Of a stretch of DNA of 1,552 nucleotides, positions 1 through 1,552 are shown in pieces. Position 1 is the first letter of the stretch; every line of letters starts with the position of its first letter. A program made the position numbers and the translations under genes. A model generated the notes under the pieces. The model did no database searches and was not told the DNA's origin. It saw only the letters and a list, made by a program, of their open reading frames with translations. Source of the stretch: Escherichia coli (GTDB lineage Bacteria > Pseudomonadota > Gammaproteobacteria > Enterobacterales > Enterobacteriaceae); assembly GCF_013315695.1 (NCBI RefSeq), contig NZ_CP054362.1; one strand, 5' to 3'.

Positions 1-50
1 CCTGTCGCATCCAGGGTGACACAACGTTGTCGCATCCTGGATGCGACAAC
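1..50. repeat. Two tandem ~25-bp imperfect direct repeats (1-25, 26-50); the second unit is a perfect 25-bp palindrome (gttgtcgcatcc-t-ggatgcgacaac). Candidate Rep operator or iterons.
   Basis: Read directly: units 1-25 and 26-50 match at 19 of 25 positions. Arms 26-37 and 39-50 are exact reverse complements. Each unit has a CCWGG (Dcm) site at its centre (11-15 ccagg, 36-40 cctgg). Further GTTG/CAAC-type palindromic motifs lie at 21-30 (acaacgttgt) and 54-66 (caaca-agg-tgttg). The function is inferred from position upstream of the rep-like gene. Confidence 0.55.
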
Positions 51-63
51 ACGCAACAAGGTG

Positions 64-93
64 TTGCACAGATGTGTCATGATGGCTTAGATT
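64..93 (+). promoter_or_regulatory. Putative sigma70 promoter for the rep-like gene: -35 TTGCAC (64-69), 18-bp spacer, -10 TAGATT (88-93)
   Basis: Hexamers chosen by eye; 3/6 and 4/6 matches to consensus, with A2 and T6 of the -10 conserved. An alternative -35 is TTGAAC at 93-98, but it lacks a good -10. Not supported by any transcript data. Confidence 0.3.
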
Positions 94-121
94 TGAACCA
101 ACGTTAGTGCATGGGATTTTT

Positions 122-1460: not shown

Positions 1461-1489
1461 AAGGGCGTTGCGTTGCGCGCAACACCCTT
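1461..1489. repeat. Imperfect inverted repeat containing a perfect 12-bp palindrome GTTGCGCGCAAC (1472-1483)
   Basis: The 12-mer is self-complementary. Flanking aaggg (1461-1465) and ccctt (1485-1489) extend the dyad, with a duplicated gttgcg on the left arm. Confidence 0.7.
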
Positions 1490-1490
1490 G

Positions 1491-1552
1491 CCTAGAATAG
1501 ATCTTTTACGCCGATTTGTAAGTTGTTGTTTTTTTAGTGTGTTTTTTGTTTA
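1491..1552. other. AT-rich tract with T-runs; possible DNA unwinding element of the origin if the element is circular and joins to the repeats at 1-66
   Basis: Composition read directly (T7 and T6 runs, gttgttg motif). The origin role is an inference from its position next to the repeats across the putative circular junction. Confidence 0.3.

Follow-up and report, generated by a model that had tools for sequence, protein, structure and literature searches.

Tandem dyad repeats upstream of repA in a 1552-bp Escherichia coli plasmid as probable RepA sites of a pKL1-type replicon

Directly upstream of repA in the stretch of Escherichia coli DNA analyzed here (the window, 1552 nucleotides) stand two tandem 25-bp units, one of them a palindrome, and the question they raise is which protein reads them and for what purpose. 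The first-pass annotation had proposed a Rep operator for autoregulation and/or iterons for origin firing. The Rep-site part of that proposal is supported by the identity of the encoded protein with pKL1 RepA, by PMC3832669, and by co-variation between repeat arms and Rep recognition helices, while the term iteron fits only loosely, the array consisting of two dyads and the initiator being without a Rep_3 domain. Units 1 and 2 are, with a probability of roughly 85%, RepA sites that act in both origin function and autoregulation. The repeats are most probably the RepA sites of a common plasmid type studied before; the observation is correct, ordinary, and already known. It carries little weight as a discovery: work on the replicon, including its sequence, dates from 1997 to 2003, and the repeats most probably represent its initiator sites.

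The plasmid and its replicon family

The window is a complete circular plasmid of 1552 bp with 100% identity to pJJ1886_1 of E. coli JJ1886, and a database search returned more than 30 deposited 1552-bp plasmids that match it at 100% over the full length, from hosts that include E. coli, E. fergusonii, Klebsiella, and Enterobacter. MOB-suite assigns the type Col(MG828) to both pJJ1886_1, which equals the window, and pKL1 (NC_002145, 1549 bp), which is 94% identical to it. The product of the 158-aa open reading frame, WP_000469298.1, is at once the sole annotated protein of pKL1 (RepA) and the pJJ1886_1 protein. With a pKL1-family RepA as its only gene, and with an IHF-like box and putative inverted-repeat Rep sites upstream of repA that are near-identical to those of pKL1, the window belongs, judging by its sequence, to the replicon family of pKL1, which PlasmidFinder and MOB-suite call Col(MG828). 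Of 5426 complete E. coli genomes, 294 carry the origin/operator region, nearly always on a plasmid, and none of the 30 records among the matches listed annotates it.

Divergence between the window and pKL1 is uneven: positions 1-612 hold 7 differences (1.1%), four of them inside repA and all four synonymous, and positions 613-1552 hold 82 (8.7%). This pattern suggests either that the plasmid is a mosaic by descent or that its replication module is far more strongly constrained. The two plasmids share an identical RepA, an identical unit 2, and the same order of elements from a GC-rich inverted repeat through to repA, and they differ in the right arm of unit 1 at position 16 (G in the window, A in pKL1) and position 20 (C in the window, A in pKL1).

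The RepA/oriV replicon of pKL1, from E. coli KL4, is reportedly the subject of studies by Burian et al. (1997; 1999, J Mol Biol 294:49; 2003, Biochemistry 42:10282), in which repA is said to be autoregulated, replication to be independent of DNA polymerase I, and RepA to form hexamers in a concentration-dependent manner, the proposed basis of copy-number control.

PMC3832669, citing Burian et al., places the pKL1 oriV upstream of rep and describes it as holding an IHF box and Rep binding sites; the same paper notes a perfect 16-bp inverted repeat in this oriV. In pKL1, the 356 bp that precede rep contain no inverted repeats of at least 12 nt other than those formed by units 1 and 2, and TGTCGCATCCAGGATG of unit 1 pairs there with unit 2 over 16 nt without a mismatch, so the published 16-bp repeat corresponds to units 1 and 2. 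In the window, because unit 1 differs at positions 16 and 20, the same perfect repeat is shortened to 13 bp.

The repeat units and their relatives

Unit 2 equals its own reverse complement at 24 of 25 positions (by script), the exception being the central W; since this base is unable to self-pair, the unit counts as a perfect 12+1+12 palindrome, as the first-pass annotation had called it. The other sequence claims of that annotation also held. Unit 1 is a copy of unit 2 at 19 of 25 positions (by script), both units center exactly on CCWGG (CCAGG/CCTGG at 11-15 and 36-40), and direct reading places the smaller GTTG/CAAC dyads at 21-30 and 53-67, the first of these (ACAAC|GTTGT) being the junction of units 1 and 2. 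Unit 1 matches the reverse complement of unit 2 slightly better (20/25) and is by itself a weak palindrome (14/25). The boundary of the feature, given as 1-66, needs revision: its elements are all present, and its start at position 1 is an artifact of linearization. Because the plasmid is circular and position 1 follows 1552, the element extends upstream into 1461-1552; contiguous analysis was done on a rotated copy (L001), in which window position x corresponds to x+348. The features are collected in Table 1.

Table 1. Features of the origin, operator, and repA region in window coordinates; a dyad or region without direction has an empty strand cell.
Feature	Position	Strand	Remarks
Unit 1, degenerate dyad copy	1..25		Left arm CCTGTCGCATCC (10/12) and right arm GGGTGACACAAC (9/12) to consensus half-site
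Unit 2, perfect 12+1+12 palindrome GTTGTCGCATCCTGGATGCGACAAC	26..50		GTTGTCGCATCC-T-GGATGCGACAAC
Small dyad GCAACA-AGG-TGTTGC	53..67		Overlaps putative -35; degenerate junction-like arms (TGTTGCA vs TGTCGCA)
Putative repA -35, TTGCAC	64..69	+	3/6 to consensus; placed from the conserved -10 block
Candidate weak half-site, TGTGTCA	73..79	-	Exact reverse complement of TGACACA (17-23) in the unit 1 right arm; in promoter spacer
Putative repA -10, TAGATT	88..93	+	18 bp after -35; in block ATGATGGCTTAnATTTGA
Candidate weak dyad site, TGAACCAACGTTAGTGCAT	94..112		74% copy of the unit 1/unit 2 junction (17-35); near likely transcription start
repA, 158 aa	136..612	+	N-terminal helix, one winged helix-turn-helix domain, C-terminal tail
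GC-rich inverted repeat AAGGGCGTTGCG / CGCAACACCCTT	1461..1489		Bounds the origin region
AT-rich stretch, candidate DNA-unwinding region	1495..1552		72% AT, 55% T on + strand; adjoins unit 1 across the junction
IHF-like box AAACAACAACTTA	1519..1531	-	One mismatch to WATCAANNNNTTR; 21 bp upstream of unit 1

A chance origin of the repeats is excluded. About 1.9e-4 palindromes like unit 2 are expected by chance in 1552 nt, a 12-nt palindrome arm was reached in 1 of 1000 Markov shuffles, and the 25-mer, with at most three mismatches allowed, appeared in none of 200 shuffles. When the half-site GTTGTCGCATCC was sought at 9/12 or better, the whole plasmid held four sites, which are the four arms of the two units.

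Unit 2 is presumably the high-affinity site for a RepA dimer. Across 11 pKL1-lineage sequences the arms of unit 2 are invariant and only its central W changes, although this invariance is weak evidence in a variant set so small and closely related; the same 11 show substitutions at positions 16, 19, and 20 in the right arm of unit 1 and a single one in its left arm. Both units are perfect palindromes in L003, whose Rep is 92% identical to that of the window, and the window's unit 1 is therefore a decayed copy. One further variant, L019 (NZ_CP075714.1), has its central bases swapped relative to the window (positions 13 and 38), so that unit 1 has CCTGG and unit 2 CCAGG, with CCWGG intact in each, as if each palindrome had been turned around or conversion had taken place between the units.

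The protein that would read these units is, by its sequence and predicted structure, a winged-helix DNA binder. RepA matches HTH_36 over residues 54-101 (E 3.5e-8), and its AlphaFold2 model (pLDDT 69.5 on average and about 90 for residues 81-100) has a long N-terminal helix, a recognition helix at 88-100, and a two-strand wing. The nearest folds in Foldseek are the dimeric ArsR/SmtB, MarR, and CodY DNA-binding domains, all at weak E values (2e-3 or higher), with no replication initiator among the matches; searches of PDB sequences with RepA alone or with a profile gave marginal helix-turn-helix matches, none of them significant. Pfam searches of RepA and 12 family members found no Rep_3 and no HUH, Rep_1, Rep_2, or Rep_trans domain, only a single HTH_36 domain. 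The RepL profile (PF05732) matches RepA at E 4.3e-3 and relatives at E≤1e-3 in 4 of 12 and E≤0.1 in 7 of 12, and NCBI names the proteins of two relatives at 42-45% identity (L013 and L014) "replication/maintenance protein RepL".

Searching the plasmid collection with RepA by tblastn gave 586 records, from identical down to about 25% identity. From these relatives, 12 complete small plasmids (L003-L014) with Rep proteins 92-42% identical to RepA were compared over the 330 nt upstream of rep. Their layout is kept: a T-rich stretch, two tandem dyad units 23-26 bp apart, and a promoter with weaker half-sites, together with an IHF-like box in eight plasmids (pKL1 included). An automatic search set the unit period at 25-26 bp in 9 of 14 loci, and reading by eye placed the remainder at 23-25 bp.

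Within this constant layout the arm sequences change. The window, pKL1, and L003 share the arm GTTGTCGCATCC; L004 and L005 have the core GAGCTA, and L006 has the site GGACAC-AGCTG-GTGTCC. The arm or core is TGACACCCTAGGATGTCA in L007, GTTGAGACAT in L008, TTGTAAAC in L011, and GCAAACATGTTTGC in L013 and L014, and L009, L010, and L012 carry the core GGAAAC or GGAAGC. Each lineage hexamer is confined to this region of its plasmid (GAGCTA 7/7, GGACAC 5/5, ATGTCA 5/5, TGTAAA 6/6, GCGACA 3/3).

Pairwise comparisons indicate that the arm class tracks the recognition helix of Rep rather than overall Rep identity. The Rep proteins of L004 and L005 are 77% identical and have a common helix (SRSTIKRWLNYLE) and a common core (GAGCTA), whereas those of the window and L004, at 78% identity, differ in both helix (window SRSTIIRWLNYLE) and site, the sole helix difference being I93, which is K in L004. 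L008 and L010 likewise differ in helix and site at 84% Rep identity, and L009 and L012, at 61%, have RT[IV]RNW and GGAAAC in common. Because arm sequence co-varies with the recognition helix across the 12 relatives, Rep probably binds the repeats directly and through this helix, and we regard the co-variation as good comparative evidence for direct binding.

The same comparison yields at least eight helix/half-site pairings, with specificity switched between Rep proteins that are 78-84% identical. These pairings could represent naturally occurring incompatibility specificities, and they could help to predict the incompatibility groups of very small plasmids or serve in the construction of orthogonal mini-replicons. 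One member of the set, L003 (NZ_CP122694.1, 2810 bp), is a pKL1-type replicon with cargo, namely genes for a lipid II-degrading bacteriocin and a YebF-family protein.

Origin, promoter, and competing readings

From 5' to 3' the region runs through the GC-rich repeat, the IHF-like box within the T-rich stretch, units 1 and 2, the 53-67 dyad, the promoter, a Shine-Dalgarno sequence (GAGGG, 123-127), and the repA start codon (ATG, 136). The IHF-like box is the sole match in the plasmid and by itself not significant. Its consensus is perfect 19-24 bp before unit 1 in L004, L006, L007, and L008, and it occurs with one mismatch in pKL1, L003, L005, and L012, the distances ranging overall over 17-24 bp. 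The position of the AT-rich stretch next to unit 1 is also kept in the relatives. The GC-rich inverted repeat occupies the same position in L003 and L004 and is absent in L012-L014; since it is present in L004, whose Rep specificity differs, it is probably no Rep-specific site. One DnaA-like box (62-70, one mismatch) is the only one nearby, lies at chance level, and is not kept in L003.

The repA promoter was assigned from conservation and would be weak by consensus; a sigma-70 consensus scan upstream of repA called no promoter. The block ATGATGGCTTAnATTTGA is common to the window and L004, in which the hexamer reads TATATT, and the natural variants change the -10 hexamer at position 3 only (G/A/C). 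Relatives have -35-like hexamers at an equal distance, and the hexamers of L004 are better than those of the window.

Several weaker copies of the half-site lie in or near this promoter. The pKL1 lineage keeps the 53-67 dyad, L003 keeps part of it, and RepA may bind it; TGAACCAACGTTAGTGCAT is invariant in the pKL1 lineage; and the relatives have clear lineage-specific half-sites in their promoter spacers at the same spot as the window's candidate at 73-79. The sites at 53-112 reach at most 7-8/12 to the half-site, at a level where the plasmid as a whole holds 15 sites of at least 8/12 against 10.4 expected, and by the 12-nt consensus the extra half-sites outside 1-50 are indistinguishable from chance. 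Any repression probably needs the sites at 53-112, because the strong sites stop at position 50 and leave 13 bp before the putative -35. A scheme of three regularly spaced dyads (units 1 and 2 and the 53-67 dyad) for one hexamer was dropped, as the third dyad of L004 lies about 15 bp from the center of unit 2.

Alternatively, units 1 and 2 could serve solely to autoregulate repA, with the origin elsewhere on the plasmid. Dyad symmetry and an ArsR/MarR-like fold are typical of operators and repressors, and copies of the half-site reach into the promoter. We nonetheless consider this reading improbable: the strongest sites lie upstream of the promoter rather than over it, and the units adjoin an IHF-like box and a T-rich stretch whose positions are conserved, an origin-like arrangement. 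The rest of the plasmid, moreover, is without other strong RepA half-sites, and relatives of 1240-1306 bp leave little other noncoding DNA in which an origin could lie. PMC3832669 also puts the pKL1 oriV, with its Rep sites, upstream of rep.

The CCWGG motifs raise a separate question, since the first-pass annotation had suggested that Dcm methylation at the center of each site could modulate binding. In its full form, for the pKL1 lineage only, methylation at the dyad centers would alter RepA affinity and hence copy number, and copy number or host range would be tied to the Dcm status of the host; if true, this would be a Dcm counterpart of Dam-controlled initiator binding. The motif sits exactly at both dyad centers and is retained in 22 of 22 units of the 11 pKL1-lineage sequences, L019 included, and 5-methylcytosine projects into the major groove and could be detected there by a recognition helix. 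Contact between RepA and the bases of CCWGG would, however, explain this retention equally well. The motif is confined to the units of the window, pKL1, and L003, and is absent from those of 10 relatives with the same layout, whose centers are CATG, CAGCTG, or CCTAGG; methylation-controlled initiator sites would be expected to keep their motif across the family, and CCWGG is not kept in this way. Nor is CCWGG enriched in the plasmid (4 sites vs 3.0 expected), and a search of the literature turned up no experimental data on such an effect. We therefore think it very unlikely that Dcm tunes RepA affinity: for the pKL1 lineage Dcm control is possible as speculation without support, and it is no property of the replicon type.

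Least credible of all is a hairpin or cruciform origin (rolling-circle or single-strand) or a cer/dif-like recombination site in place of RepA-bound duplex, for although the region folds strongly as single-stranded DNA (-23.1 kcal/mol, z -5.25), any palindrome does so, RepA has a winged helix only and no HUH, Rep_1, Rep_2, or Rep_trans domain, the co-variation of arm and recognition helix points to sequence-specific recognition of duplex DNA, and Rfam matches nothing in the window. A rolling-circle origin was rejected specifically because neither RepA nor its 12 relatives contain a recognizable HUH/Rep_trans nuclease domain. Xer recombination sites have the geometry 11+6-8+11, and a Xer/cer-like site was rejected because the 12+1+12 arrangement is unlike it.

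If units 1 and 2 are RepA sites serving both origin and promoter, each 25-bp dyad would be read by a RepA dimer through the recognition helix of its single winged-helix domain. Dimers bound to unit 2, and more weakly to unit 1, beside an IHF-bent T-rich region would lead to origin opening and replisome loading. As RepA accumulates and oligomerizes, occupancy would spread from the strong sites over 53-112 and shut off the repA promoter, and such spreading could couple initiation to copy-number control. We infer the dimer-per-unit stoichiometry, the spreading onto the promoter, and the site of unwinding from the arrangement of these elements. The conserved spacing of 25-26 bp, about 2.4-2.5 helical turns, would place neighboring dimers on nearly opposite faces of the DNA, an arrangement which suggests that oligomer geometry may set the spacing.

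The element would thus function like an iteron/operator array, but it is not a classical iteron origin. As in the origins served by pSC101 RepA, F RepE, R6K pi, and pPS10 RepA, the putative initiator sites adjoin an AT-rich region with an IHF-like box and precede a rep gene that is reportedly autoregulated, and site sequence would set replicon specificity. In contrast to those origins, which have at least three asymmetric repeats of 17-22 bp at a period of about 22 bp, the window has two dyads at a 25-bp period; its initiator is a 158-aa protein with one winged helix and no Rep_3 domain, rather than two winged helices, and nothing in the window indicates a division of labor between monomers and dimers. 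The RepL family (PF05732) resembles RepA in comprising small single-domain plasmid initiators and in the weak profile match over the winged-helix core, but the match of the window's RepA lies below a confident threshold, and the sites lie upstream of the gene, whereas the RepL origin of phage P1 is described as lying inside the repL gene. ArsR/SmtB, MarR, and C-terminal CodY repressors share with RepA the fold of the DNA-binding core, a dyad target, and, as reported for repA, autoregulation of the gene; unlike them, RepA is a replication initiator with reported hexamers, and there is no relationship at the sequence level.

The remainder of the plasmid

Between repA and the far end of the plasmid, 613-1204 is a GC-rich stretch of about 600 bp with no annotated gene in any record, and at least 80% of it is covered in about 480 plasmids. 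A 226-aa open reading frame on the minus strand (694-1374) has never been annotated.

Two segments further along resemble transfer origins. Positions 1202-1291 match, over about 90 bp at 88-94% identity, an unannotated stretch of many large conjugative plasmids, and in pHV114 (IncI-gamma/K1) this match lies directly beside nikA/nikB, the position of the IncI1-type oriT; the window thus seems to carry an IncI1-type oriT there. Positions 1398-1460 match small mobilizable ColE1-like plasmids over about 60 bp at 92-100% identity, with the NZ_CP070002 match placed between rop and mobC, where a ColE1-type oriT/bom is located. This segment is a second oriT-like sequence and probably explains the typing of the plasmid as mobilizable. 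A perfect 25-nt inverted repeat, GGGGTGTCGGGGCGAAGCCCTGACC, is found at 1205-1229 and 1434-1458 with 204 nt between its arms; because each arm starts one oriT-like segment, the two putative transfer origins would face each other.

Frames resembling parts of RepA occur in large plasmids: residues 44-157 at 74% identity in E. coli plasmids of 70-97 kb, residues 97-157 at 80% in Proteus and Vibrio plasmids of 170-330 kb, and residues 113-157 at 80% in an Arsenophonus plasmid of 104 kb. These frames are probably remnants of small replicons that became integrated. Finally, positions 1200-1465 of the window are 100% identical to NC_004833.1, a 1488-bp plasmid deposited as being from Corynebacterium renale, which may be an enterobacterial plasmid recorded under the wrong host or may point to a surprisingly wide host range.
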